Positions 10,761 through 46,690 of a DNA stretch of 64,000 bases are shown one piece after another (the first letter of the stretch is position 1; each line of letters starts with the position of its first letter). The position numbers were made by a program, and so were the translations under genes. Location of the stretch: the NCBI RefSeq assembly GCF_056746865.1, contig NZ_CM163382.1. One strand, written 5' to 3'. The notes under the pieces were generated by a model. That model was not told the DNA's origin. It searched no databases and was given only the letters and a program-made list of their open reading frames with translations.

Positions 10761-11601
10761 ATCCAGTTTAGTAAATCTTTACGTTAGCTAAAATCAGTTT
10801 AAAGCTGCTGTAAAACCTTTCTGTTTAAGCAATCAATCTGCTATTCGATTTTACTGATGTTGCGTTTAACCTTTTCTGAGTTTTTGTGTTTTTAGTCGTT
10901 AACCTGAGACAAGTGTCTTTACGTAAAAACGCAAATCCGACTGAGATAACCTGGTGTGATTTACGGTGTGCTTGCGACGATTTTGTTAAATGGTTCTATG
11001 GATGATTTTGTGACGATGAGATTGATGAGATGATTAACTGGCCCTGGTGTTTTTTCTCAGTGCAAGGTGATTATCTTCATCATAAGGCTCTTTTCAGAAA
11101 AAGCGTGATGATTGGTTCTGGTGTTTTGATTCAGATGAGATTTACGTTATCGATGGTTAATCGTTTTTATGGTGTGTTGAAAAGTAACGTTTTCACGATA
11201 AGAAAATCGATTCTGATATTGGTGAACTTTGTTCTTGTGGCAGGGTTATCTGTAAACAGGTTTTAAGTGCGCTATTCGGCTCTGTGATTGAGTTGTGTGG
11301 TTAAGCTGTAGGTTTTGGTGTTGTTGTTGATTTACAGCGCCAGAAAGCGTTCTGATTGCGTTTTTGATGTTTTGTTTGCACGTTCTGTTGATCCGTTTCC
11401 CTTCAGGCTTTGTAGTTTTTAAAAACCATTTATGCCGTTGTTGTGTGTTTTATCCTGCGTGTAGGTTTATCTTTTCTTCGTGGGGGATTCATTCTGTTTT
11501 AATCAGGAGCCATTGGCGTTGCTCAATGGCGGGATGCCGTAAAGTTTTACCGCAGTGATTAATGATGTGAAGTCAATCCAAATCAACGGAGATCTCTCAT
11601 C

Positions 11602-12333
11602 ATGAATCAACCAATACACAATGCTTACTGGTTATCCCGTTTTGAAAGTATTCTCAACAGTGCCCTGGCGCAACACCGTGCCGTCTCGTTAATCCGGGTG
11701 GATTTACGTTTCCCTGAGTATATGCCTGCCACCATCATGGATACCGATTTAGATTCAGCGGTGATTTCTCGTTTTTTTGCATCCCTGAAAGCAAAAATTC
11801 AGGCTTACCAGCGACATAAACGACGTGCCAACAAGCGTGTGCGTGCAACCACTCTGCGTTATTTCTGGTGTCGGGAGTTTGGCAAGGAAAAAGGCAGGAA
11901 ACATTATCACGTGATATTACTGCTCAACAAAGATACCTGGTGCTCGCCAGGGGATTTCACCGTTCCTTCTTCGCTGGCGACACTGATCAAGCTGGCATGG
12001 TGTAGTGCTCTGCATCTTGAGCCCTGGCAGGGTAATGGACTGGTTCATTTTTCCAGGCGGACGCCTTTCCGTAAACCGACATCATCTGATGCTCGCCCTT
12101 CTTCCGATGATACGCCTTTGTCGGGTGGATGTTCTGATACCAGGAAGGCTTCAGACAAAAAGCCGGGTGAAGCCGCTGTTCTCTGGATCAAGCGTGGTGA
12201 TGTGGAAGCGCTGCAGAAAGCCCGGAACAGAGCCAGTTATCTCGTGAAATATGAGACGAAGCAGCATGACGGTTCCGGGCAACGTAATTATGGTTGCAGT
12301 CGTGGGCCGGGGCGTCTGCTGGATGGCAGGTGA
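11602..12333 (+). CDS. Inovirus Gp2-like protein (YagK/YfjJ family) of CP4-type elements
   Basis: N-terminus MNQPIHNAYWLSRFESILNSALAQHRAVSLIRVDLRFPE recognised from memory of the YagK family; RBS ggag 12 nt upstream. Confidence 0.55.
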   Translation: MNQPIHNAYWLSRFESILNSALAQHRAVSLIRVDLRFPEYMPATIMDTDLDSAVISRFFASLKAKIQAYQRHKRRANKRVRATTLRYFWCREFGKEKGRKHYHVILLLNKDTWCSPGDFTVPSSLATLIKLAWCSALHLEPWQGNGLVHFSRRTPFRKPTSSDARPSSDDTPLSGGCSDTRKASDKKPGEAAVLWIKRGDVEALQKARNRASYLVKYETKQHDGSGQRNYGCSRGPGRLLDGR

Positions 12334-12689
12334 GCCCTGTAAAACGACATCCGGTGTCTGAGCTTATGCTACAGGACGTTGGCTGACGCCCTTAGCTCGT
12401 TTTCTGAAAAAGTCGTCCTGAAGTCATGCAACGGTATTTTTCTCTGCTTTCGCTCCTGGAAACACTCCGTCGGTAAAACCTTACTGTCCTGCTTAATGAT
12501 GTGAACCGAAGTCAACGGAGAGCATTCATTCTGAACCTGCATCCGGTGTTCTGTCCCTTGTCGGTTACCTGATCTTCCCGTTCTGCCGCGGTTTTTCACT
12601 TATTCCATCAACCCCATACGCAAGCCATAACACGTCAGCGCATCCACGGGCAGGACGCGTTGTGGGCTGCGTATAACGGAACATATCTT

Positions 12690-13262
12690 ATGAATGCTAT
12701 CCCTTATTTCGACTATAGCATGGCGCCCTTCTGGCCATCTTATCAGAACAAAATCATCGGCGTTCTCAACCGTGTGTTGCGCGAGCAGTCCTGCTCCCGA
12801 ATACGGCGGATCCTGCTTCGTCTGCCGGGGGAACATGGCAACATCTTCAGCGACAGAAAAACCTGGTTCGGTATGGCCTTTATCGAAACCGTCAGTGCGC
12901 TGATGAATGCAACACCCGGACGCGACCTCTGCTGGCTCCTGACACGTCATCCTGAAAAACCGGAATACCACGTGGTGCTGTGCGTCAGACAGGAATATTT
13001 CGACGGCCCTGAGCTGGACCGGTTGATTCTGGATGCCTGGAGCAACGTACTGGGCTTCGCGTCACCGGGTGAAGCAGCACCGTACCAGAAACAGATAACC
13101 CGGGATGTGGTGCTGGACAGTTGTTCACCGGACTGCGAAGAGAGACTCAAAGAGCTGATATGGGCGTTCAGTGATTTCGCCCGCGATCGTCGTGGTGTGC
13201 GCGATCCGGAAGCCCGTTACCTCGCCGGTAATCCCTGGTATCCCGTAGCAGGCCAGCTCTGA
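12690..13262 (+). CDS. Second YagK/YfjJ-family-like protein (paralogous module)
   Basis: 190-aa ORF from ATG 12690; similar leader element upstream (TTAATGATGTGAA...CAACGGAGA); family call is tentative. Confidence 0.4.
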   Translation: MNAIPYFDYSMAPFWPSYQNKIIGVLNRVLREQSCSRIRRILLRLPGEHGNIFSDRKTWFGMAFIETVSALMNATPGRDLCWLLTRHPEKPEYHVVLCVRQEYFDGPELDRLILDAWSNVLGFASPGEAAPYQKQITRDVVLDSCSPDCEERLKELIWAFSDFARDRRGVRDPEARYLAGNPWYPVAGQL

Positions 13263-13330
13263 AAGCTCAGCTCAGCAGATTCACCCGCATTTGCCCAACA
13301 TTCATAAATCTCACAGAGGACATTCTGACC

Positions 13331-13567
13331 ATGTTGACCTCAATGACAGGTCACGACAGCGTATTGCTGCGTGCCGACGATCCCCTGATCGACATGAACT
13401 ACATCACCAGCTTCACTGGTATGACCGACAAATGGTTTTACAAGCTGATCAGTGAAGGCCATTTCCCTAAACCCATCAAACTGGGGCGCAGCAGCCGCTG
13501 GTACAAAAGTGAAGTGGAGCAGTGGATGCAGCAACGAATCGAGGCATCACGAGGGGCAGCAGCATGA
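13331..13567 (+). CDS. alpA: AlpA-family phage/integrative-element transcriptional regulator
   Basis: 78-aa ORF with AlpA-like core (YITSFTGMTDKWFYKLISEGHFPKPIKLGRSSRWYKSEVEQWM). Confidence 0.8.
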   Translation: MLTSMTGHDSVLLRADDPLIDMNYITSFTGMTDKWFYKLISEGHFPKPIKLGRSSRWYKSEVEQWMQQRIEASRGAAA

Positions 13568-13767
13568 AACGTGTTGTAATGCCGGTACGCTGGCAATGTG
13601 CAAAATACCAGCGTTGGTATTGTGGAAATCAGCCCTGTCCCTGGTGCTGGCGACCTGCTGCCCCCGTCTGTCATTCCTCGTTCTTCGCTGTAACAGGCAT
13701 CGTACCGGTCTCGGCGTGCTTTCCTGCGTACCGACACCGGTTCAGCAACATTCAAGGGGATCAAATC

Positions 13768-14304
13768 GTGCAAATAACCGAAACCGTACTTTCAGAGCCG
13801 GTGGAAATCCGGCGTTTTATTCAGCAGGCGGTGGATCACTGGCCGCGTCTGCTGGCCGTCCACTTCACACTCCATTCGGCAGAAGGAAACATCAACGGAC
13901 AACAGATTCATGCATTCTGTACTTCCTTTTATGAACGTATTACTGAGCGTAATCACACGACCAGTCCATCATCGCCGGTGGTATTACGCTGGTTGCGGGA
14001 ACAACATGGAGGAGCAACAATGCGATGCCTGTTGCTGCTCAGCCAGACGAGTATTTGTCACCCGCGAGCCAGTGTCACAGTTGATGAACAATGTTCGCAA
14101 GTGGTGGATTTACTGCAGCAGACCTGGCGGGGGATGGATACGGGCGGACAATGTCGGGTGGAAAGGTGTTTTCAGGCTGCCCGGGGTGATACATCCGGCC
14201 AGTATATTGCGTTAAAAACAGTTGCATTGTCTCTGGGGTTACCGGTTGTGACCGGTATTACCCATCGCCCGGTACAGCGCTGTACATTGATTACAGCTCA
14301 GTGA
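13768..14304 (+). CDS. Hypothetical protein (GTG start) downstream of alpA; a degenerate paralog lies at 42410-43010
   Basis: RBS agggga plus GTG conserved in both copies, while the upstream DNA differs by indels (so the longer 13522 ORF is unlikely to be the real start). Confidence 0.45.
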   Translation: MQITETVLSEPVEIRRFIQQAVDHWPRLLAVHFTLHSAEGNINGQQIHAFCTSFYERITERNHTTSPSSPVVLRWLREQHGGATMRCLLLLSQTSICHPRASVTVDEQCSQVVDLLQQTWRGMDTGGQCRVERCFQAARGDTSGQYIALKTVALSLGLPVVTGITHRPVQRCTLITAQ

Positions 14305-14321
14305 ACAGCGCTGTTGTGCAG

Positions 14322-14833
14322 TCAACGAGGTTTTCTGTCTTTTCGTCGGTCATTCAGCATCATTAAACGGGTCTCTGCCTCTTTCTGTTCCTGTGGTGTC
14401 ACTTCCCCGCACGGCTGACCGTTCAGGTTGTAACGGGCGCCACCTGCTATTAACGCACGGTAATAGCGCGGAGACTGCACATAAGACGCCACTGCTGCAT
14501 GTAATGTACCAGCGCCAAACGCCAGTTCTCGGATGGCGATATCCTGTATCAGGTCGTCAGGTATCCCCACTTTAAGTGGTTTTGTTTTTTTCCCGGTTGA
14601 ATGACTCAGGCCAGAGTTCCACAAGACGAATAATGCGCTTACGGTTTTTGCTCTGGCGTTTTGTCATGTCGCCACGGTGTTTTATCAGCAGGTTTCTGTT
14701 TATCGTTCAACTGTGGTATCTGGTCACCGGCCTTCATTTTGTATGCTGTGTCCGTTTTATCCTGCAGCGGCGTTGCCGGTGATTTACTGAAAATACCCTG
14801 CGGTTTACGGTTAATGGTCAGAGTTACCATCAA
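14322..14833 (-). other. Two short minus-strand ORFs (100 aa and 64 aa), possibly one frameshifted gene; unknown function
   Basis: ORFs 14322-14624 and 14639-14833 in different frames; no family recognised. Confidence 0.2.
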
Positions 14834-15188
14834 TTTTGTTACCTCGCGCTGTCAATGGAAGTAGTACCTCATCCGATATCTGAAAATGTTTTCCGGTGGA
14901 TGTTACAGCGAATTTCATGTAAGACATGTTGTTGTCGGTATTGTTCAGTACTGTGCGTTGTGAGCGTATTCGTTATCAGACAGAGGGGCAGGGAACAAAT
15001 GGCGTAAACGGACATCTCAGTGCCTGAGAAACAGTACAGGTCAGGCCATCATGGCCTGCAAACAGAGCCCTGGCGACCCCGTGGCCGAAAACGAAACAAT
15101 AACCCGCGCGCAGTGCGAGGAATCCGGATGTGAAGCAATCAGCAGGTAATATTAATGGCAGGACCAGCAGGTTCTTTAAACAAACGAA

Positions 15189-15952
15189 GGTGGTGACTCC
15201 AATTAGTAGAACATATATTTTTCGATAAAGGCACCGATGACTTTTTCATGAAGTTCTACAGAGCGCGAGAAACAGATAGTTCTGCGGGCCAGACGTTTGA
15301 TTCGGGTTCTCAGAGGTAGATGTTGCGCTCAATGCGCTGAGTAAAAATCTTACCAGTCAGATGCTTCTCCTTCGGTAACTCTCTGGTGTAACTACCCCAT
15401 TCGTCAGTGGTCAACATACCGATGGTAAAAGGGCAAGCAGCGCCAGCAATTCACGACAGGTTTAATCAGTCCGTAGGCCAAAAGTGTAGGCCAGAACGCC
15501 ACCAGTTTTCGTGTTGTACGTGTACCAGAGCCAGTGCTGTCGCGCTTTACTGCCGACAAAACTCCATTGCTCATCAAGTTCGCAGATGAGTGCCATATCA
15601 GCATGAGCGACCGGGTATGACGTTATTCTTCGTGGCGAGAGTTTTTTAAAGTCCGGATGACAGTATTAATGCCGATTTTCAGCGTACGGGCAGTATCGCG
15701 AACTCCGGCACCGTTGAAAGCCATTTCAGTGATTTGCTCTTTAACTCCCGGTTTACGGGCCTCGTAACGGTAAGTGAGCTGAAGCACTCGATGACAGTCA
15801 CGGCAGCGAAATCGATCATGTCCTTTGGGTTCTTCCCGTGACGGTAAACCTGAACGGACTGGCAACAGGAGCAATGAAGGTTAACTGTGACCATGAAAGA
15901 ACCTTAAAAGTGGCTATTATACTCCTAATTCAACTAATTGGAGTCATTACCG
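15189..15952 (-). mobile_element. insA: IS1-family element (divergent), full length with about 23-bp terminal inverted repeats; insA recognisable, insB degraded
   Basis: IRs GGTGGTGACTCCAATTAGTAGAA (15189) and reverse complement of ...TTCAACTAATTGGAGTCATTACC (15952); InsA-like ORF 15623-15874 (QLTYRYEARKPGVKEQITEMAFNGAGVRDTARTLKIGINTVIRTLKNS). Confidence 0.7.
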
Positions 15953-15962
15953 TATTCATAAT

Positions 15963-16130
15963 GGATTAGGTTCAGCAGTTGCTGAAGTGCTTGTAGAAAC
16001 TTGTCCTGTGCCCATGCGTCGGGTGGGGGTTAAAGAGCGGTATGGCCAGGTTGAAACTCAGGACTTTTTACAGAGAGAGTACGGGTTAACCGCGCAAGCT
16101 ATTGTGGCGGCAGCCAGAGAGCTATTGTAA
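15963..16130 (+). pseudogene. 3'-terminal fragment of a gene, possibly transketolase-family C-terminal region, truncated by the IS1 element
   Basis: In-frame peptide GLGSAVAEVLVETCPVPMRRVGVKERYGQVETQDFLQREYGLTAQAIVAAARELL ending at TAA 16128-16130, with no upstream start. Confidence 0.3.
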
Positions 16131-16506: not shown

Positions 16507-17329
16507 AGGGAGATGAAAAAGGCAATAGCAGAACTGAGTGACAGTGAAACCATTCTGGCGTACAGGGTTGGATGGTGAAACTGATAAAAAAACCCTCTGA
16601 AAATTCTGTCAGAGGGTGTAGTCAAAAATGGTAGATATTTACGATGCAGTAATGCTTTCACTCCGGTAATTAATTTCCGTGATTAACTGCTTTCGATCAA
16701 TAAAGGAATTGCAAAAGTGTGATCTTGTTCACGACATCGTGGATGATAATATGCCTGATGTCTGAATCCGGAAACAGTGCTCTGGCGGGTTTCATGTGAA
16801 GTTGACGGATAAAAAATCCGCACGACCAGACAGACGTGCGGTTTACGAAATTCGTAACAAGAGGCTTTTCTACGGATCACGTGGTGCGTGCCACGTGAAA
16901 TTTTTGTAGCGCAAAATGTGCAATGTGTAAATACAAGGAAGGAAAAAAGTTAAATTGGTAGAAGTCCATGCCTGCCACATGTACGTCTGCATTCCTCGTT
17001 TTGAACAGAATTCTCACCAGACATCGTGAATTTCTCATTCAATCATCAGAGATATTAACCAGGATTTTTATTGTTTTGTGATATCAGCAGTGCAGGTATA
17101 CAGACGTTAAAGTAATCAGGTTTATTATAACCACCTTTACAAAGTTGTATATGTTTATAATTTAATGATTTTAATGCCAGTCGTTTTCTGCTGCTTAAAT
17201 TGAGGTCGCATATTATACACAATAATATTCTTAGCATTATTAAATTAATAAGAGAGGATTCTTATCACTGTATTTTTGCTCCGCACTACCGTTCTGGCTG
17301 GTGAAGTAATAATACAGGAGAATAACAGA

Positions 17330-18871
17330 ATGCTTAAAAGACGTGATGCTTTTTTAAAGAAAAGCGCGCTGGCAGTGAGTGTGGCCCTGCTGCTCTCGGC
17401 TCAGGCTCAGGCTGTTTTGACAGGGCCTGTTGATGGTAATTCTTCCAGCTTACTGATTGGAGAAAACTCTTTTATTACGAATTTAACTGGTACAGTTAAT
17501 AACACTTTCCTTTTGGGAGGTGGCGCTTTTAACCTGGATTCACCAGGAAGTCTTCAGTTTGGCTCTTTTTCGGAAGTGTATAATTCTCCACACAGTGTCA
17601 CCCTGGGAAGGGATGCCGGTCAGGCTGAGTCAAAATATGGTGTTGCCATAGGTAAGAGCGCTGAGGTATTTAATTCACAGCATAGTGTTGCTATTGGGGG
17701 ATGGGCTGGAATAGAAAATTCTTCAGGCTCTGTAGCTCTGGGCCATGGCTCACAGGTGTCGGGAGAAAATAACGTGGTATCTGTTGGTGCCGGGCCTGAG
17801 GGATATGGAAAGAGTGTCAAAGGAGCACCGGAAACCCGCCGGATTATAAATGTGTCTGATGGTATCAATAACACAGATGCAGCGACGGTAGGGCAACTGA
17901 ATGAACGATTTGATGATGCACAGGTCTTTTTGTTGCAGACGAATGAAAGAATTGACGAGACAGATAAACGTCTTTCAACAGTTCATGCTGAACTCAGCAG
18001 GGATATTATTGCAGGCACATCGGCAGCGGTGACGTATACAGATGTAACAGCGCTTGCACTTCAGGATGAGATAAAGGATGGGACGAACAAAGTACGTGAT
18101 GAGTTGAAATCACAGGGAGACAGTCTGCGTGGTGAGATAGGCGGTGTATACAGAGATGCCCGTGCTCATACTGACAGTCAGGTCACAGCAGTACGTGATG
18201 AACTGAAGGCAGAGGGAGACAGTCTGCGCGGTGAGATAGGCGGTGTATACAGAGATGCCCGTGCTCATACTGACAGTCAGGTCACAGCAGTACGTGATGA
18301 ACTCAGCAGGGATATTATTGCAGGCACATCGGCAGCGGTGGCGTATACGGATGCATCTTCTCTTGCTCTTCAGGATGAAATAAAAGAAAAAGCGGATGAA
18401 ACAGTTCAGGTTTCCCGGGCTTATACAGATAAAAGTGTACGGGATGCCCGTAAAGAAGCGAAAAGCCAGGCAGAACATCTCAGCGATGTGCTTGTGAAGA
18501 ACAGGGCGCAGACGGATGCAGCAATAGCCTCAAATACAGCAGCGATAAGGAATAACAGTCATCGTCTGGATTTGACGGAAGCCTGGCAGAAGATGGCGAC
18601 AGAGAGAATGAATAATATGCAGGAGCAGATTAAAGAGAACCGGAAGGAGTTAAGGGAGAGTGCAGCCCAGAGCGCGGCACTGGCCGGTCTTTTCCAGCCA
18701 TACAGTGTTGGAAAATTTAACGCGACAGCAGCCGTTGGTGGTTACCGTGATGAGCAGGCCATTGCGGTGGGCGTGGGCTACCGTTTCACAGAGAATGTGG
18801 CAGGAAAAGTTGCAGTTGCTGCAGGTGGGTCATCCGCATCGTGGAATGCTGGTGTGAATTTTGAGTTCTGA
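17330..18871 (+). CDS. Trimeric autotransporter adhesin, YadA-like (possibly Eib/Saa-like), 513 aa
   Basis: Signal peptide ([28 protein letters not shown]), head repeats (GVAIG, SVAIGG, SVALGH), neck motif [11 protein letters not shown], coiled-coil stalk with repeats, C-terminal anchor ending NAGVNFEF. Confidence 0.8.
18092..18289 (+). repeat. Two near-identical 99-bp tandem repeats within the adhesin stalk (33-aa units), plus a third partial unit
   Basis: Units start at 18092 and 18191 and differ at only a few positions; a further roughly 45-bp direct repeat at 17984-18036 and 18296-18348. Confidence 0.85.
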
Positions 18872-20737: not shown

Positions 20738-21011
20738 TGTATCTTATATTGTGATATCGGTGCTGCTGCTGTTATTTTTTGTTGTATTTGTGACGAATGG
20801 TTAAGAATAAAACATGAGTTGGTGATTATCAGGACAGGTTGCTTGTATATGAAGATAACAAAGGCGGCATTTATTTTTGCGCTGTCAGTGTGGAGTGTTG
20901 CTGTGATATGTCTTTTATTATTTGTACTGGTTGTTCTGGGATAGCCATAGTGAAATAAAAAGCTGTCTGAATTAAATTATTTTGAACACATATTTTAATT
21001 CTGCACTAAAT

Positions 21012-22329
21012 TCAGAATGACCCTGTAAATAATTCTGTGTAACTGCCGCCGTATTAAAGGTGCTCGCTAAGGCGGTCACCGAACTCGATAATAAAACGGC
21101 TCATTGCCAGCCGCCAGTTCTGGATTGGCATACTCCATTTTTTGACGCCGACTGTATCGCCAGATAAATCACTTTTCGCACCGAGTCGTCCGTTGGGAAC
21201 ACCTTGCGCTTCTTTATCGCCTGCCGAATGACACTGTTCAGCGATTCGATGGCATTCGTCGTGTAGATGGCCTTGCGGATATCCGGTGGGTAACCGAAGA
21301 AGGTGTTGAGATTTTCCCAGTGTGTGCGCCAGCTCTTGCTGATTTGCGGGTATTTTTCATCCCAGACGCCTGCAAACTTATCCAACGCCATCAACGCCGT
21401 TTCCTCTGTCGGGGCCTGATATACCGCTTTCAGCCCGCTGGTGACGGCTTTGTAATCCTTCCACGACACGAATTTCAGGCTGTTGCGCACCATATGGATG
21501 ATGCAGAGCTGAATATGCGTCTGCGGGTACACGCTATTTATCGCTTCCGGGAAGCCTTTCAGGCCGTCCACGAAGGCGATAAGGATATCGTTCAGGCCGC
21601 GATTTTTCAGTTCCGTCAGTACATTCAGCCAGAACTTTGCACCTTCATTTTCGGCCAGCCACATATCCAGCAGCTCTTTCTGACCGTCGGTATTGATGCC
21701 CAGCGCGAGGAACACCGCTTTGTTAATGACACTCCCGCTGTGACGAACCTTAACCACAATACAGTCAAGATAAACAATGGGATACAGTGCATCCAACGGT
21801 CGGTTTTGCCATTCAGAGACCTGTTCTTTAACCGCATCGGTCACTTTGGATATCAGCGTGGGCGAGACATCGGCGTCGTACATTTCTTTGAAGGCTGAGG
21901 TAATTTCGCGGGTAGTCATCCCTCTGGCATACAGCGCCAGGATCTGGTTGTCCATGCCGGTAATGCGGGTCTGATTTTTCTTCACCAGTTGTGGTTCGAA
22001 GGTATTTTCACGGTCACGCGGCGTGTTAAGTTCGATCTCGCCATCATCGCACAATACCGTTTTTGACGAGTAGCCATTACGGGTATTAGAGCCTGATTTA
22101 GGAGCATTTTTCTCATGACCTAGATGGTCAGTCAGTTCTGCATTGAGCGCCGTTTCGACGGTAAGCTTTGTCAACATGCGTGAAAACTGGTTGAGGTCGG
22201 CTTCGGTTTTAAGGCCTTTGGCCAGTTCAGCCGCAAGGACTTTAAGTTTCTTTTCGTCCATCGTTTGCCTGTCTCCGTTGTTGGAGTGAACATATCAAAA
22301 ACAGGCAATTACACAATTTTAATTACAGT
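21012..22329 (-). mobile_element. IS256-family insertion sequence with imperfect terminal IRs and 9-bp target duplication (ttcagaatg)
   Basis: IRs ACCCTGTAAATAATTCTGTGTAACTGCC (left) and reverse complement of GGCAATTACACAATTTTAATTACAGTCTC (right); flanks recreate a sequence found uninterrupted at 46537-46690. Confidence 0.65.
21047..22261 (-). pseudogene. IS256-family (mutator-type) transposase, frameshifted near its 3' end
   Basis: Protein is IS256-like throughout; the expected C-terminus (SKKWSMPIQNWRLAMSRFIIEFGDRL...) is readable in another frame after a poly-A tract at about 21140. Confidence 0.65.
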
Positions 22330-22469
22330 CTCTTCAGAATGGGTAATCAGTGACCGTCCTGACGGTCACTTTAAAGAAAATGCATATTACACAGAATGGT
22401 AAACAGGCTCAACATAGAGCTTGAAGGTAGTTGTTGCCTTGTAATAAAATGTGTGATTCATAGACATCG

Positions 22470-23058
22470 TTTCAATTTTCTCAGTTCAAGTTCAGGCTTG
22501 TAATTCTGTTCCTGTATATGCTCTTCATTGGGCTGATAGTTTGCATGAACGGCATCGGAGTATGGTGTTTTCTCAGCAAGTTCAAAGTAGCGTTCCATCG
22601 GAGTTTTACCGTTGTGAGCGCTATGAGGACGTTCCCTGTTATAGTAATGCTACCATTCTGCTAGCAATCCCTTCAGGTCATCAGCAGAAAGATCTACGGT
22701 AGCGTAAAACTCAGCTTTGTCTGTCTTTTGGGAACGTCCAACCTTTATTACATCAGGCGACAACTACCTTGAAAAACGCCGTTACTCACCGATCCCCTTC
22801 ACGGTAATACGCACTATTGCCAGTGAGATTGAATGAAGTCGTTTTAACTCGCTTTGAATACGTCTTGCACCCAGATTTCGCTGAGAACGTAACTTCCAGA
22901 ATCAGAGCGACTTCGCAAGTGCTGGTTTTCGTTGATGGTGAACGCTTGGAGCGACGGCTGTAGCTTTCCAGACCAGCGATGCCCTGAGCCAGATATCTGC
23001 GCCACCATTTACACAATGTGGGCCGAGAAGTGCCACAGTGACGGCATACAAATGTCAA
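22470..23058 (-). pseudogene. IS481/IS3-like transposase remnant (HTH fragment plus integrase-core C-terminus with in-frame TAG)
   Basis: N-terminal fragment CKWWRRYLAQGIAGLESYSRRSKRSP and C-terminal fragment HYYNRERPHSAHNGKTPMERY separated by stops. Confidence 0.4.
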
Positions 23059-23101
23059 CGACGGATGAAAAGTGGCTCTTACGCAACCTGGATGGAGATT
23101 T

Positions 23102-24119
23102 TCATGCCAGTGGACTCATGACCCTCTGCCTGAGTAGTTCAAATCCGGCTCGACCATACATCTGGCCTTTCAGCATTTTTAGTCGATTTACATGACTTTC
23201 GACAACCCCCATTATTCCAGCGACTGCTGATTGCCTCACATATAGCCGCAGCATCAGCTGCCATCCTTGCAGCCACGCGCCGAAGTTACCACTTTCTCGT
23301 TGCTCTTTTAACCACTCCCTCCATGGGGCCAGAAGTCCTCGCTCTGGAGGCCGGGTTGACATTTCAGGGAATGTTCCTGAACACACCCAGAGACTGACTG
23401 TCACACGTGATAAGCCTGTAATACGGGATATTTCCCCTGAACCCACATCCCTTGTTATGTAGTGCCATAACCTCTGTCCAACGCTGATGCCGTTTTTGGC
23501 GGGTTTGCTGTTTAAGGCGTTCCGGACGACGGAGCGATGCTACAGGCACAGACAGTACTGGCTTAGGTGATTTCTTTGGTGACAACCCACTGGCAACAAG
23601 ACGTATCAGAGGCATCTGTCTGTACATCATTCGTTCAGGCGCATCGCCAATATTTTTTAGCAGGTGCCATCGATCAGCTATCTGTCTGGCCTGAGGTGCA
23701 CCTTCACGTGCTGCTGTCGCATAGACTCCGCCACGGTCACGTGAGACAACCTGTATTTCCGGATATTTTCTGAACCAGGTCGCCAGCGTACTCTGATCGC
23801 AACCGGGAAGCAGGACGAGGGGACGGTGAGTATCAAGATTGACGATTAACGTGCCGTAATGGTGGCCCCGATGCCACGCCCACTCATCAATACCGACATG
23901 AGGCGCGCCCGACTGTTTCGTCTCCGGGGTATTAATAACCCTGCGAAGAAGAGTATCAGCACTGCAACGTAGCCCCACTGCCGTTGCTGCCTGTTTCCCG
24001 GCCTCACCTCCGGCTATTAATCCCGGTTGACGTTGTAAATTTTGTAACGCCTGTGAATACTGCTGATGTGAACTGTGAAGGGAGGCTGAGACTCGGCAAA
24101 ATTTTTCGTTAACAGGCAA
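23102..24119 (-). pseudogene. DDE transposase remnant, ISL3-like, in two overlapping frames
   Basis: Motifs DRWHLLKNIGDA and VNRLKMLKGQMYGRAGFELLRQRV; frameshift between ORFs 23102-23446 and 23364-24119. Confidence 0.45.
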
Positions 24120-41376: not shown

Positions 41377-41616
41377 ATGGGGAACGAAAAGAGCTTAGCG
41401 CATACCCGATGGAACTGTAAATATCACATAGTTTTTGCGCCAAAATACCGAAGAAAAGTGTTCTACAGAGAGAAGCGTAAAGCAACAGGCAGTATTTTGA
41501 GAAAGCTGTGTGAGTGGAAAAGTGTACGGATTCTTGAAGCTGAGTGCTGTGCAGATCATATCCATATGCTTGTGGAGATCCCGCCCAAAATGAGCGTATC
41601 CGGCTTTATGGGATAG
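41377..41616 (+). pseudogene. tnpA: IS200 TnpA (Y1 HUH transposase) 5' fragment, truncated
   Basis: MGNEKSLAHTRWNCKYHIVFAPKYRR.VFYREKR...ILEAECCADHIHMLVEIPPKMSVS, then abrupt junction with IS256-like sequence. Confidence 0.75.
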
Positions 41617-42347
41617 ACGGCATTAATCGCTTCCGGGAAGCCTTTCAGGCCGTCCACGAAGGCGATAAGGATATCGTTCAGGCCGCGATTTTTCAGTTCC
41701 GTCAGTACATTCAGCCAGAACTTTGCACCTTCATTTTCGGCCAGCCACATATCCAGCAGCTCTTTCTGACCGTCGGTATTGATGCCCAGCGCGAGGAACA
41801 CCGCTTTGTTAATGACACTCCCGCTGTGACGAACCTTAACCACAATACAGTCAAGATAAACAATGGGATACAGTGCATCCAACGGTCGGTTTTGCCATTC
41901 AGAGACCTGTTCTTTAACCGCATCGGTCACTTTGGATATCAGCGTGGGCGAGACATCGGCGTCGTACATTTCTTTGAAGGCTGAGGTAATTTCGCGGGTA
42001 GTCATCCCTCTGGCATACAGCGCCAGGATCTGGTTGTCCATGCCGGTAATGCGGGTCTGATTTTTCTTCACCAGTTGTGGTTCGAAGGAACCATCACGAT
42101 CAGGTGGAGTACGTAATTCCATCGGCCCGTCGGTAGTGGTGACGGTTTTCGTGGAATAGCCATTACGGAAGTTGGTTCCCGATTTGGTCTGATTTTTTTC
42201 ATGTCCCAGATGGTGAGTCAGTTCAGCGTTGAGAGCTGCCTCAACACTTATTTTCTTGAGCAGGCGATCGAACTGACTGAGATCTTCAGGGGTTTTGAGA
42301 TTTTTGGCCAGTTCGTTAGCCAGAGCCTGCAATTGTGTGTCGTCCAT
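41617..42347 (-). pseudogene. Truncated IS256-family transposase copy with a divergent N-terminal 100 aa
   Basis: Identical to the 21047-22261 copy from QLVKKNQTRITGMDNQ onward but divergent before it; 3' end cut at the IS200 junction. Confidence 0.6.
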
Positions 42348-42409
42348 AATTTAGCTTTCATTTGATGTTGAATTGAACAGATCAAAATCAGGCAATTACA
42401 TAAATCTAT

Positions 42410-43010
42410 GTACAGGCTCAATGCCGGCGCTGGTATTGTAGAAATCAATCCTGCCCCTGATGTCGGAGATACTCTCGTTAACCTTCCTGATTGTATCCTC
42501 TGCTCAGTCAATGGGTTGCCAATGGGGGCACCCTTTCCTGACTGATTCGTCATTTCATTCTTATTGTATGTTACTGGCATTACACCAGTGCTGGCATACT
42601 TTCCTGCGTGTCTGCACCGGTTTGACAAAATTCAACAGGGATAAAATAGTGCAGGAAACTGAAGCATTACTTGCAGAGCCGGGAGACATCCGGCGTTTTA
42701 TTCAACAGGCAGTGGATCACTGGCCGCATTTTCTGATTGTCCACTTCACACACAATTCGACAGAAGGAAACATCAACGGACAACAGATTCATGCATTCTG
42801 AACTTCCTTTTATGAACGTATTACTGAACGTAATCACACTGACAGTCCATCCTCGCCGGTGGTATTACGCTGGTTGCGTGAACAACATGAAGGAACAACA
42901 ATACCTGTTGCTGCTCAGCCATGTGGTGGCATGCAGCGGCACTTTAAGCAGCACAGGGCACTTTGAACTGCTCCGGGAATCCTGGAGACTAAACTCCCTG
43001 AGAAAGAGGT
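42410..43010 (+). pseudogene. Degenerate paralog of the alpA-downstream gene (13600-14304), frameshifted
   Basis: DNA and peptide similarity (DIRRFIQQAVDHWP, HFT...TEGNINGQQIHAF, LPFMNVLL, RRWYYAGC) with frame changes. Confidence 0.5.
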
Positions 43011-43267
43011 AAACAGGATGAGTATGATTCACAATTGGGGTAATTTGTTCCATTGCCTCAAATGCTGGCTGTACGCCACAGACTCTGCGTGTCTGGGTTA
43101 GCCAGTATGAGCGGGATACAGGGGCGCTTCACACATAACATTCCTTCTAATTTGCATAATTAATTACACTGATAGTCACATTCAATAACTATCATAAGCT
43201 ATCATCTGGCTGACTGTTATTTCGCAACAGTTATTGAGTAAATCTTTAACCTGTTAACAGAGGGTTT

Positions 43268-43792
43268 ATGAAACGTAAACTTATTGCCTTTGTGATTCTG
43301 GCTACATCATCCTGTGGATATGCAGCCACCAAAGATGTAACAATGAATCTTGTTGATAGTGACGGAAAAGAGCGAAATATTGGTAAAATAACCATCCAGA
43401 AGACACCCTACGGGCTGCTGTTCACCCCTGATCTTCACTCCTTACCCGCCGGCATTCATGGTTTTCATGTACATGAAAACGCAAGTTGTGCTCCTGCCCT
43501 GAAAGATGGAAAAACTGTCGCTGCTTTATCTGCAGGTGGTCACTTTGACCCGGAAAAAACAGGGAAGCATCTCGGTCCATGGTCTCCTGATGGCCACCTA
43601 GGTGATCTCCCTGCGCTTTATGTCACTCATGACGGAAAAGCAACCTACCCGGTGCTTGCGCCAAGACTATCTGAATTAAAGGAGCTCGATGGCCGTTCGC
43701 TAATGCTCCACGCAGGAGGTGATAATCATGATGACCATCCTGAACCTCTAGGTGGCGGTGGTGCAAGAATTGCCTGTGGTATCATCCCATAA
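43268..43792 (+). CDS. sodC: Periplasmic Cu,Zn superoxide dismutase SodC
   Basis: Signal peptide plus Cu/Zn-binding histidine cluster (GFHVHE, GGHFDP) and C-terminal [12 protein letters not shown]. Confidence 0.85.
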
Positions 43793-46149: not shown

Positions 46150-46482
46150 GCCGTATCCCGTATTACAGGCTTATCACGTGTGACAGTCAGTCTCTGGGTG
46201 TGTTCAGGAACATTCCCTGAAATGTCAACCCGGCCTCCAGAGCGAGGACTTCTGGCCCCATGGAGGGAGTGGTTAAAAGAGCAACGAGAAAGTGGTAACT
46301 TCGGCGCGTGGCTGCAAGGATGGCAGCTGATGCTGCGGCTATATGTGAGGCAATCGGCAGTCGCTGGAATAATGGGGGTTGTCGAAAGTCATGTAAATAG
46401 ACTAAAAATGCTGAAAGGCCAGATGTATGGTCGAGCCGGATTTGAACTACTCAGACAGAGGGTCATGAGTCCACTGGCATGA
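46150..46482 (+). pseudogene. Duplicate of the ISL3-like transposase C-terminal fragment seen at 23102-23446
   Basis: Identical peptide ...SRITGLSRVTVSLWVCSGTFPEMSTRPPERG...VNRLKMLKGQMYGRAGFELLRQRVMSPLA. Confidence 0.5.
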
Positions 46483-46536
46483 AAATCTCCATCCAGGTTG
46501 CGTAAGAGCCACTTTTCATCCGTCGTCGATATCTGG

Positions 46537-46690
46537 GATAGCCATAGTGAAATAAAAAGCTGTCTGAATTAAATTATTTTGCACATATATTTTAATCCTG
46601 CACTGAATTAAGAATGGGTAATCAGTGACTGCTTGGACGGTCACTTTTAAGAGAAGGCATTAACAGAGAATGGTAAACAGGCTCAATATA
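46537..46690 (+). repeat. Uninterrupted copy of the sequence that flanks both sides of the IS256-family element at 21012-22329
   Basis: 46537-46602 matches 20936-21011 and 46603-46690 matches 22330-22420 with few mismatches. Confidence 0.7.

Follow-up and report, generated by a model that had tools for sequence, protein, structure and literature searches.

The window analyzed here, 64,000 nt of an Escherichia coli genomic island (contig NZ_CM163382.1 of RefSeq assembly GCF_056746865.1), carries an intact gene module that recurs across many E. coli islands, in which the regulator gene alpA is followed by a gene of the UCP030791 family (copy A), and, 29 kb away, a degraded piece of another UCP030791 gene (copy B). 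The best overall explanation, which we hold with good confidence, is that the window combines this intact recurring module with a nonfunctional relic of a second block of a different lineage. The relic adds little by itself, as it is a pseudogene already flagged in RefSeq, and mosaic, multi-element islands riddled with insertion sequences (ISs) are standard in pathogenic E. coli. The added value lies in the putative Rep-like ancestry of UCP030791 and in a conserved, largely unannotated micro-open reading frame (micro-ORF) that appears to be coupled to alpA, both of which are modest and testable.

The intact and the degraded copy of the UCP030791 gene

Copy A (positions 13768 to 14304, plus strand) is an intact UCP030791 (PF27752) gene that encodes 178 amino acids (aa) from the family-wide GTG start codon. 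A repeat search in the window paired it with copy B through an ungapped core of 265 nt at 88% identity (13757-14021 versus 42638-42902), and in a BLASTN search of copy A against the window, copy B was recovered with an E value of 1e-104. The similarity is therefore not a short chance match, an outcome that the sequence-only reading of this DNA had named as fatal to its claim of a paralog. Alignment with MAFFT extended the homologous limits to 13604-14045 versus 42420-42921; the alignment contains an indel of ~64 nt upstream of the GTG and reaches into the alpA-proximal spacer, while downstream it crosses a 5-nt deletion before the similarity ends. The 3' 260 nt of the copy A gene have no counterpart in copy B. 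The decayed paralog that had been proposed at 42410-43010 is thus present, with a right limit that overshoots the end of the homology at 42921. In both copies, the GTG (13768 and 42649) has a Shine-Dalgarno (SD)-like sequence upstream (AGGGG/AGGGA). The same GTG, with an SD-like purine run upstream, is common to all 20 alleles inspected and is the start used by the NCBI Prokaryotic Genome Annotation Pipeline (PGAP), so that the conservation of the ribosome-binding site and the GTG, as read from the letters alone, held up. Neither copy lies within a known IS: copy A is in a conserved non-IS block, and copy B is outside the flanking IS ends.

On its left, copy B is bordered by a fragment of an IS256-family (IS1414-like) element (41611-42419, minus strand), which is 85% identical to the full IS at 21525-22332 and is annotated by PGAP as an incomplete IS256 family transposase. 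The alignment with the full IS ends at 42419, and the first base after it, 42420, belongs to codon 14 of the micro-ORF that in intact modules follows alpA. Copy B retains the 3' half of this micro-ORF (42420-42460, plus strand, as seen from the alignments and the sequence), with the changes G21R and P24S and with W27 turned into TGA, a long-type spacer, and the first 85 codons of UCP030791 (42649-42921, plus strand; 80% in tblastn over residues 1 to 85). In this last part, a TGT codon has become TGA (42799-42801), and 5 nt are deleted at 42900/42901. With the nonsense codon, the deletion, and the absence of the 3' 260 nt, no intact UCP030791/PF27752 frame is left, and PGAP/RefSeq already annotates copy B as a frameshifted, incomplete pseudogene with an internal stop. 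Forty nucleotides to its right stands the end remnant of an IS629/IS1203-like element of the IS3 family (42961-43024, plus strand), recognized by thousands of megablast matches to annotated IS3/IS1203/IS629 transposase ends, and beyond it the cargo gene sodC (43268-43792, plus strand; named by PGAP), which is outside the module.

Among 54 unique alleles, copy B has 11 private substitutions, distributed 3/3/5 over the three codon positions, compared with 0 to 4 in intact alleles, which is the pattern of an old, unconstrained pseudogene. The nearest allele sampled in this set reaches 89.4% identity to it over 255 nt, compared with 87.5% for copy A. Of 5,426 complete E. coli genomes, 53 have an identical copy B, all other alleles were at most 84% identical by megablast, and no near-identical intact progenitor was detected. 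Copy B is almost certainly a dead relic with no function. The repeat is thus real yet ordinary, an annotated pseudogene relic in a mosaic island.

Origin of the degraded copy

Copy A is of the short-spacer type, and copy B is of the long-spacer type found in UTI89 and KKo009. Because copy B keeps the 3' half of the micro-ORF and the spacer, it once stood downstream of an alpA gene, and the combination of an alpA-linked micro-ORF tail, a different spacer type, and a divergent sequence shows that its ancestor was a separate alpA-type module and not copy A. DNA of at least two alpA-type modules has ended up in the island. The statement of the sequence-only reading that the island had absorbed more than one integrative element stands insofar as copy B derives from a different module lineage; that a whole second element was ever there is not established by the 500-nt piece left between the IS ends. 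Counting against a resident second element, the window yielded no integrase gene and no att site that could be assigned to copy B. A tblastn search with all module proteins found no other remnant of a second module near copy B. The adjacency of copy B to sodC, on which that reading had also remarked, is present and incidental, since elsewhere the sodC segment has another IS on its left, namely, an IS66 element in strain 3CM.

One alternative is that copy B is a duplicate of copy A that arose within the island and later decayed, with no second element involved. The copies lie on the same strand of one island, both lack a 12-nt segment (encoding RQVH) that is present in most alleles, and their central 150 nt are ~96% identical. 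Their overall identity is just 83 to 88%, however, and they differ in spacer type through the ~64-nt indel, the long spacer of copy B being that of the UTI89/KKo009 type. Several alleles found in other islands resemble copy B more closely than copy A does, and the form shorter by 12 nt occurs in 8 of the 54 unique alleles and is not specific to the pair. A phylogenetic placement of copy B outside the copy A clade is indicated, and a duplication within the island seems to us very improbable. Another alternative is that copy B is a short passenger fragment, imported from another island of the same or another genome by transposition or recombination of an IS256- or IS3-family element, and that it was never part of a resident element. 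IS ends lie at or near both edges of copy B, the lack of further module remnants nearby fits such an import, and the sodC segment beside it is an IS-bounded cassette found in other contexts. Possible donors exist as well, as E. coli genomes have a median of 2 and a maximum of 8 places matching an alpA-UCP030791 query. Nothing directly contradicts import, which is a variant of the second-module origin that differs only in where the decay happened, although the arrangement around copy B is fixed and identical in the 53 genomes that have it. We regard import as a real possibility that falls somewhat short of probable, and from these data, the decay of a whole element in situ and the IS-mediated import of a fragment cannot be told apart.

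In the explanation that we prefer, descent of copy B from a second block of a different lineage, an IS256-family element would have cut that block inside the micro-ORF, removing alpA, the 3' part would have been lost near the IS629/IS1203-like end, and the remainder would have drifted without constraint. The number of query-matching places per genome, together with a second complete module in PK8275 (see below), indicates that a composite origin is the rule for such islands.

The micro-ORF coupled to alpA

In every intact allele, the alpA stop codon is overlapped, as ATGA, by the ATG of a micro-ORF of 30 to 57 codons that has an SD-like GAGG(G/A)G sequence 7 nt upstream. In the window, the TGA occupies positions 13565-13567 and the ATG occupies positions 13564-13566; this overlap at 13564-13567 had been pointed out from the letters alone and was confirmed. 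The micro-ORF begins with a conserved, zinc-ribbon-like core of 30 codons (13564-13653, plus strand), MKRVVMPVRWQCAKC[QR]RWYCGxxPCPWCWR. Conservation is much higher in the 90 nt that follow the alpA stop than in the remainder of the spacer, and BLAST matches to 13560-13700 end at query positions 93 to 95, which is the end of the core, in 2,578 of the 5,426 complete E. coli genomes.

Sampling of metagenomes with an anchor inside alpA, which did not select on the micro-ORF, gave 116 usable loci. ATGA is present in 103 of the 116; the core is intact with its five Cys in 74, has one Cys replaced in 8, and is disrupted in 21. Over the 41 unique cores, the variable sites at codon positions 1, 2, and 3 number 10, 11, and 21, and the ratio of nonsynonymous to synonymous polymorphism (pN/pS) is 0.22 in frame but 1.33 and 1.22 when the other two frames are read. 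Four Cys residues (C12, C20, C25, and C28) never vary, and a fifth, C15, is kept in 38 of the 41 alleles. The same picture had been obtained with an earlier set of 15 alleles. Codon-position variation, pN/pS, and the invariant Cys residues together show purifying selection on the micro-ORF and argue that it is a small coding sequence.

An intact UCP030791 gene is not needed for its presence. The micro-ORF is found behind alpA also where UCP030791 is reduced to a stub (FORC_028, GTG at L012 2778) or missing (O157:H7), which makes it a companion of alpA. Nearly all RefSeq annotations leave the region intergenic, and the micro-ORF has been called just sporadically, as a "hypothetical protein." The micro-ORF matched no Pfam, NCBIfam, or PHROG family, its peptide and accessions were not found in the papers searched, and, within those papers, the descriptions of the CP4-57 and CP4So systems do not include an ATGA-coupled zinc-ribbon micro-ORF. 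In O157:H7, the end of alpA is annotated differently, and the micro-ORF lies in unannotated sequence. In FORC_028 (L012) and O157:H7 JEONG-1266 (L016), alpA and the micro-ORF are followed by a glycosyltransferase-like gene.

A noncoding role of the conserved 90 nt, in which they would act in cis as RNA or DNA (for instance, as a site for AlpA or as an attenuator), would agree with their being left intergenic in nearly all annotations and with the presence of a conserved hairpin farther downstream. Such an element would hardly account for an excess of variation at third positions (10/11/21), for a pN/pS of 0.22 in frame versus 1.2 to 1.3 in the other frames, or for four invariant Cys residues; moreover, the frame is maintained although the pair of residues that separates C20-G21 from P24 is free to vary, the start codon overlaps the alpA stop in 103 of 116 loci behind an SD-like sequence, and there is no Rfam match, a scan of 11000-16000 having returned nothing relevant. 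We consider a noncoding element improbable and the coding interpretation the better one.

The Cys residues of the predicted micro-protein form two CxxC pairs, C12-x2-C15 and C25-x2-C28, with C20 in addition; in the window allele, C15 is replaced by Tyr (C15Y, TAC at 13606-13608). This layout recalls Zn_ribbon_11 (PF11682), the "putative zinc ribbon proteins" of the same islands, which consist of a DUF7828 domain and a zinc ribbon. The micro-ORF aligns without gaps to their motif C-x2-C-x4-Y-x-G-x3-C-x2-C, but it has 30 to 57 residues only and lacks the DUF7828 domain. Several observations weigh against a zinc ribbon that acts as a regular partner of AlpA. In hmmscan, a single 51-aa variant matched Zn_ribbon_11 with an E value of 0.38 and 10.9 bits (cutoff, 24), and the 37- and 42-aa variants gave no match to its hidden Markov model (HMM). 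The ungapped hhalign alignment reached an E value of 0.0047 at a probability of 7.5%, and an AlphaFold2 model of the micro-protein, which suggests a beta-hairpin followed by a helix, is of low confidence (predicted local distance difference test score, 67). In addition, about a quarter of the sampled alleles are disrupted or have lost a Cys, which means that the micro-ORF is dispensable in many islands. What the sequences suggest is therefore a resemblance to Zn_ribbon_11, not membership in the family.

In one class of micro-ORF alleles, the Cys motif has been lost through an internal deletion (MKRVAMPALVLRKSALS...; L022 2487-2612 and ~15 metagenomic loci). It is this degenerate form that PGAP annotates as a protein (WP_000831909.1).

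Frame fusion and spacer in the window allele

The window allele has a run of five C (13661-13665, plus strand), one more than the otherwise identical C4 alleles L023 and L024; the divergent short-spacer alleles L008 and L025 have CACC instead. In the four-base versions, a TAA corresponding to 13691-13693 closes the micro-ORF at 42 codons (proteins P0175 and P0177). The extra C shifts the frame, so that the micro-ORF runs stop-free into UCP030791, and the result is a fused ORF of 246 codons (13564-14304, plus strand), made up of the micro-ORF, a linker, and UCP030791, with no stop between ATG 13564 and GTG 13768. The exact 246-aa product has been called on 9 E. coli contigs. The fused frame occurs in 7 of the 12 short-spacer metagenome loci, two of which keep C15, and in the independent complete genomes L001 and L003. 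Most loci (62 of 74) have the long spacer, and in these, as in divergent alleles of the short-spacer type, the micro-ORF stays separate. Judged by this distribution, the family-wide architecture is one of two genes, and the fusion is a derived state specific to one allele group. From this allele, a fusion protein of 246 aa may be translated in addition to the 178-aa form that begins at the conserved GTG. The longer coupled product on which the sequence-only reading had speculated is thus borne out as far as the existence of a 246-codon ORF goes; the ATG as such starts a separate micro-ORF, and the fusion arises only in the short-spacer group, by a 1-nt insertion.

A further step would be to take the 246-aa ORF from ATGA as the real gene in the window and GTG 13768 as merely an internal codon. 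The lack of a stop from 13564 to 13768 and the recurrence of the fused frame in short-spacer alleles, including two with C15, are in line with this, as is the calling of 246- and 250-aa forms by gene callers. Yet the GTG and its SD sequence are kept in every allele inspected, and the micro-ORF stops 0 to 27 codons past the core in the long-spacer loci and the divergent alleles with a short spacer. Where long forms are called in other genomes (for example, P0057 and P0006), these use a different upstream frame, and the fusion in the window hangs on a single extra C. We find it unlikely that the GTG is only an internal codon.

Some 30 nt upstream of the GTG, an RNAalifold consensus places a conserved hairpin, or paired ACCGGT palindromes, at 13703-13740 (plus strand), with a counterpart in copy B at 42594-42631. 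All 14 of 14 alleles keep it, with 14 pairs, one-sided (wobble-compatible) changes only, and no double compensatory changes. The wider RNA around it folds no better than shuffled sequences (z score, -0.5). This segment could be a protein-binding site or an RNA hairpin.

Relationship of UCP030791 to Gp2/YagK-YfjJ proteins

A comparison by hhalign of 18 UCP030791 members with seven paralogs of the Gp2/YagK-YfjJ Rep-like protein, whose gene lies in the same module, gave a probability of 96.7% and an E value of 4.7e-10 over 144 columns, and a weaker version of this match was obtained already from a single sequence. The corresponding Pfam family, PF11726 ("inovirus Gp2"), comprises rolling-circle Rep-like proteins such as those of the E. 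coli cryptic prophages CP4-6 and CP4-57. Its order of secondary-structure elements, that of a Rep-like/palm-like fold, matches that of UCP030791. At the level of single proteins, 4 of the 18 UCP030791 members matched PF11726 weakly (best E value, 7e-4), below the Pfam threshold; for the window copy A protein, there was no match to the PF11726 HMM at an E value of ≤0.01, and the gathering threshold was not reached.

The motifs of the Rep-like proteins are not shared. In the seven Gp2 paralogs, HxH (H101 and H103) and Y-L-x-K (Y213-L214-x-K216) are invariant. At the positions aligned with HxH, UCP030791 has T-M-R-C in the window and x-R-M/C in the consensus, with no conserved His, so that the HUH motif is absent; nor does the family have the Tyr-Leu-x-Lys motif or any invariant Tyr or His. 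The sole candidate for a Tyr-equivalent position varies among Y, H, L, and F, an equivalence that was judged by eye, as the hhalign alignment ends before Y-L-x-K. On these comparisons, UCP030791 is best classed as a remote, motif-less relative of the Gp2/YagK-YfjJ Rep-like family. From the homology and the motif loss, both of which are observed, we infer a loss of activity, which would make UCP030791 a catalytically dead offshoot of the neighboring Rep-like gene. That it binds DNA as a noncutting Rep derivative is conceivable, and we advance this with reserve. Seen as a motif-less Gp2 paralog, the uncharacterized family would gain a testable role, DNA binding without cleavage.

A possible role for the module in AlpA control

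The alpA gene (13331-13567, plus strand) encodes a 78-aa helix-turn-helix (HTH) regulator of the AlpA/Xis type. It matches PF05930 with an E value of 2e-10 and passes the gathering score of that family with 40.8 bits (cutoff, 21), and it matches the PHROG "excisionase and transcriptional regulator" with an E value of 6e-10. The window product is thus an AlpA-family HTH protein akin to the AlpA/Vis/Xis-type regulators of P4-like and CP4-type elements; unlike in the AlpA-bearing elements of these kinds, no integrase gene adjoins it. AlpA of the CP4-type prophage CP4So is needed for excision, induces excision, and acts as an excisionase (PMC5148205).

In the mechanism that we propose, AlpA would serve the element as excisionase and transcriptional switch, translational coupling with AlpA would yield the zinc-ribbon-like micro-protein as its small partner, and UCP030791, its HxH and Tyr motifs lost, would bind DNA without cutting it. 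The roles of the micro-protein and of UCP030791 are ones that we infer from sequence, which also counts against the scheme. Translational coupling of the micro-protein and joint action with AlpA are put forward tentatively. A more far-reaching proposal is that the micro-protein is an unrecognized, widely conserved third component of the AlpA switch, present in about half of the complete E. coli genomes and almost never annotated, that it acts with AlpA in excision or transcriptional control, and that, in the short-spacer group, the presence or absence of the extra C decides whether it is a free peptide of 42 aa or the N-terminal domain of a fusion with UCP030791; in this full form, the proposal is speculative and, on balance, rather unlikely. 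AlpA controls the excision of CP4-type elements, and an overlooked partner encoded on the same message would, if real, bear on the retention and loss of islands.

Copy A and the UCP030791 family

The ortholog of copy A, WP_001167455.1, is named "UCP030791 family putative phage-derived protein" in RefSeq/PGAP and is assigned to the Pfam family PF27752 in precomputed annotation. A search with copy A returned 337 matches (best E value, 2e-104), all annotated as PF27752; membership of copy A was judged through these annotated homologs and not through the HMM of the family. Copy A is full length relative to other UCP030791 members, is 88 to 93% identical to them, occupies the same position after alpA, and represents the 178-aa form without the four residues RQVH. 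Local searches against Pfam, NCBIfam, and PHROGs gave no match for copy A or copy B.

Copy A is a mosaic of two allele types. The alpA-UCP030791 part is 95.8% identical to its neighbors, versus 98.1% over the whole 2.1-kb query. The ends of copy A match the PK8275/TUM9803 allele (L001/L003), and its middle, without the 12-nt RQVH segment, matches a P0057-like allele. Strain XH992 has the same island with a long-spacer allele at the position of copy A. The copy A locus recombines between islands.

The family is small, with 53 clusters at 50% identity among 1.84 billion representatives, many of them fragments. A scan of 100,044 GTDB species-representative genomes with the family alignment found one locus, on a contaminant-like contig in a Collinsella metagenome-assembled genome, and UCP030791 is essentially confined to the E. 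coli pan-genome. No homolog was detected by tblastn in 50,697 phage records, so the label "phage-derived" is not backed by phage genomes. In a scan of viral contigs with a pattern internal to the UCP030791 gene, a single match appeared, which had no BLAST similarity and was dismissed as chance. UCP030791 always occurs in the same block, after Gp2/YagK-YfjJ, a hypothetical gene of ~190 aa, and alpA. In one variant (P0058; 196 aa, on 19 contigs), UCP030791 is fused at its C terminus to a Zn_ribbon_11 motif (PF11682; E value, 2.9e-7). The probable origin of this fusion is a deletion reaching into the "putative zinc ribbon protein" gene downstream; it is the second case in which a zinc ribbon became joined to UCP030791, independent of the first.

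Gene content of the module

The segment at 11.6 to 14.3 kb is a complete copy of the recurring block, in the order Gp2/YagK-YfjJ Rep-like gene, 190-aa hypothetical gene, alpA, micro-ORF (with its ATGA start), and UCP030791 gene (with its conserved GTG). The first gene, of the YagK/YfjJ ("inovirus Gp2") Rep-like type (11602-12333, plus strand), matches PF11726 with an E value of 2.9e-36 and PF23343 with an E value of 3.4e-10. The conserved 190-aa hypothetical gene 5' of alpA (12690-13262, plus strand; PGAP coding sequence WP_000991602.1 in relatives) has no Pfam, NCBIfam, or PHROG match. Its product weakly resembles the Gp2 paralog (BLASTP E value, 0.028) around the HUH region, EYHVVLCV compared with HYHVILLL of Gp2, and the gene may be the third Rep-like paralog of the module, one that has diverged very far. 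A promoter and terminator scan gave a number of sites no higher than in shuffled sequence.

Copy A is followed by a ProQ/FinO-family pseudogene (14325-14824, minus strand), identified by a match to PF04352 on a 100-aa ORF and annotated by PGAP as "frameshifted"; tblastn with an intact homolog splits across frames into at least 3 pieces. An intact version of 174 aa is present in strain S2 (L019).

Strain PK8275, whose island is nearly identical to that of the window, has at a distance of ~100 kb from copy A a second complete block (NZ_CP080163.1 8395-22200, L027), which is inverted and next to a tyrosine recombinase. Its order is ProQ pseudogene, UCP030791, alpA, hypothetical gene, and Gp2, with a GTPase and then DUF4942 farther along, and the flank with IS1, a transketolase fragment, and a YadA-like gene is likewise mirrored. 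The arrangement looks like a large inverted duplication or two facing elements.

Island setting of the window

The sequence of the window matches chromosomes of E. coli, and the exact 178- and 246-aa products are both present in E. coli records. In a comparison with PK8275, the flanks of copy A are 98% identical and the copy B region is 100% identical, and there the locus adjoins cadC. The window is a portion of a mosaic genomic island beside cadC whose cargo includes aerobactin, sit, sodC, and iha and which bears numerous IS scars. A minus-strand block of toxin-antitoxin, antirestriction, and GTPase genes (0.5 to 8.8 kb) is followed by the alpA module, the ProQ/FinO pseudogene, and IS remnants with a YadA-like gene. 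The right part holds iucABCD-iutA and sitABCD, then the IS256-family fragment, copy B, and sodC, and finally further IS remnants and iha. No tRNA gene was found in the 64 kb. Both the iucABCD-iutA cargo and the chromosomal neighborhood agree with those of mosaic aerobactin islands at pheU or beside cadC, such as SHI-3 of Shigella boydii, which is mentioned at pheU in PMC6174562. Set beside islands of the SHI-3 type, the island in the window appears much larger and its makeup more composite, as it also includes sit, sodC, iha, and numerous remnants of ISs.

Pairs of IS-derived repeats, direct and inverted, bracket the iuc/sit/sodC cargo (21525-22332 versus 41611-42419, 23049-23430 versus 46154-46535, and 20935-21019 versus 46532-46616), among them an inverted pair of 382 nt that is 98% complementary. 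These repeats are potential substrates for inversion and deletion. Farther to the left, an ORF of 531 aa (17276-18871), annotated as a YadA-like adhesin in relatives, contains tandem 99-nt repeats with 86 to 94% identity (17976-18387; families D4 and D5), and the number of repeats in this ORF is likely to vary.

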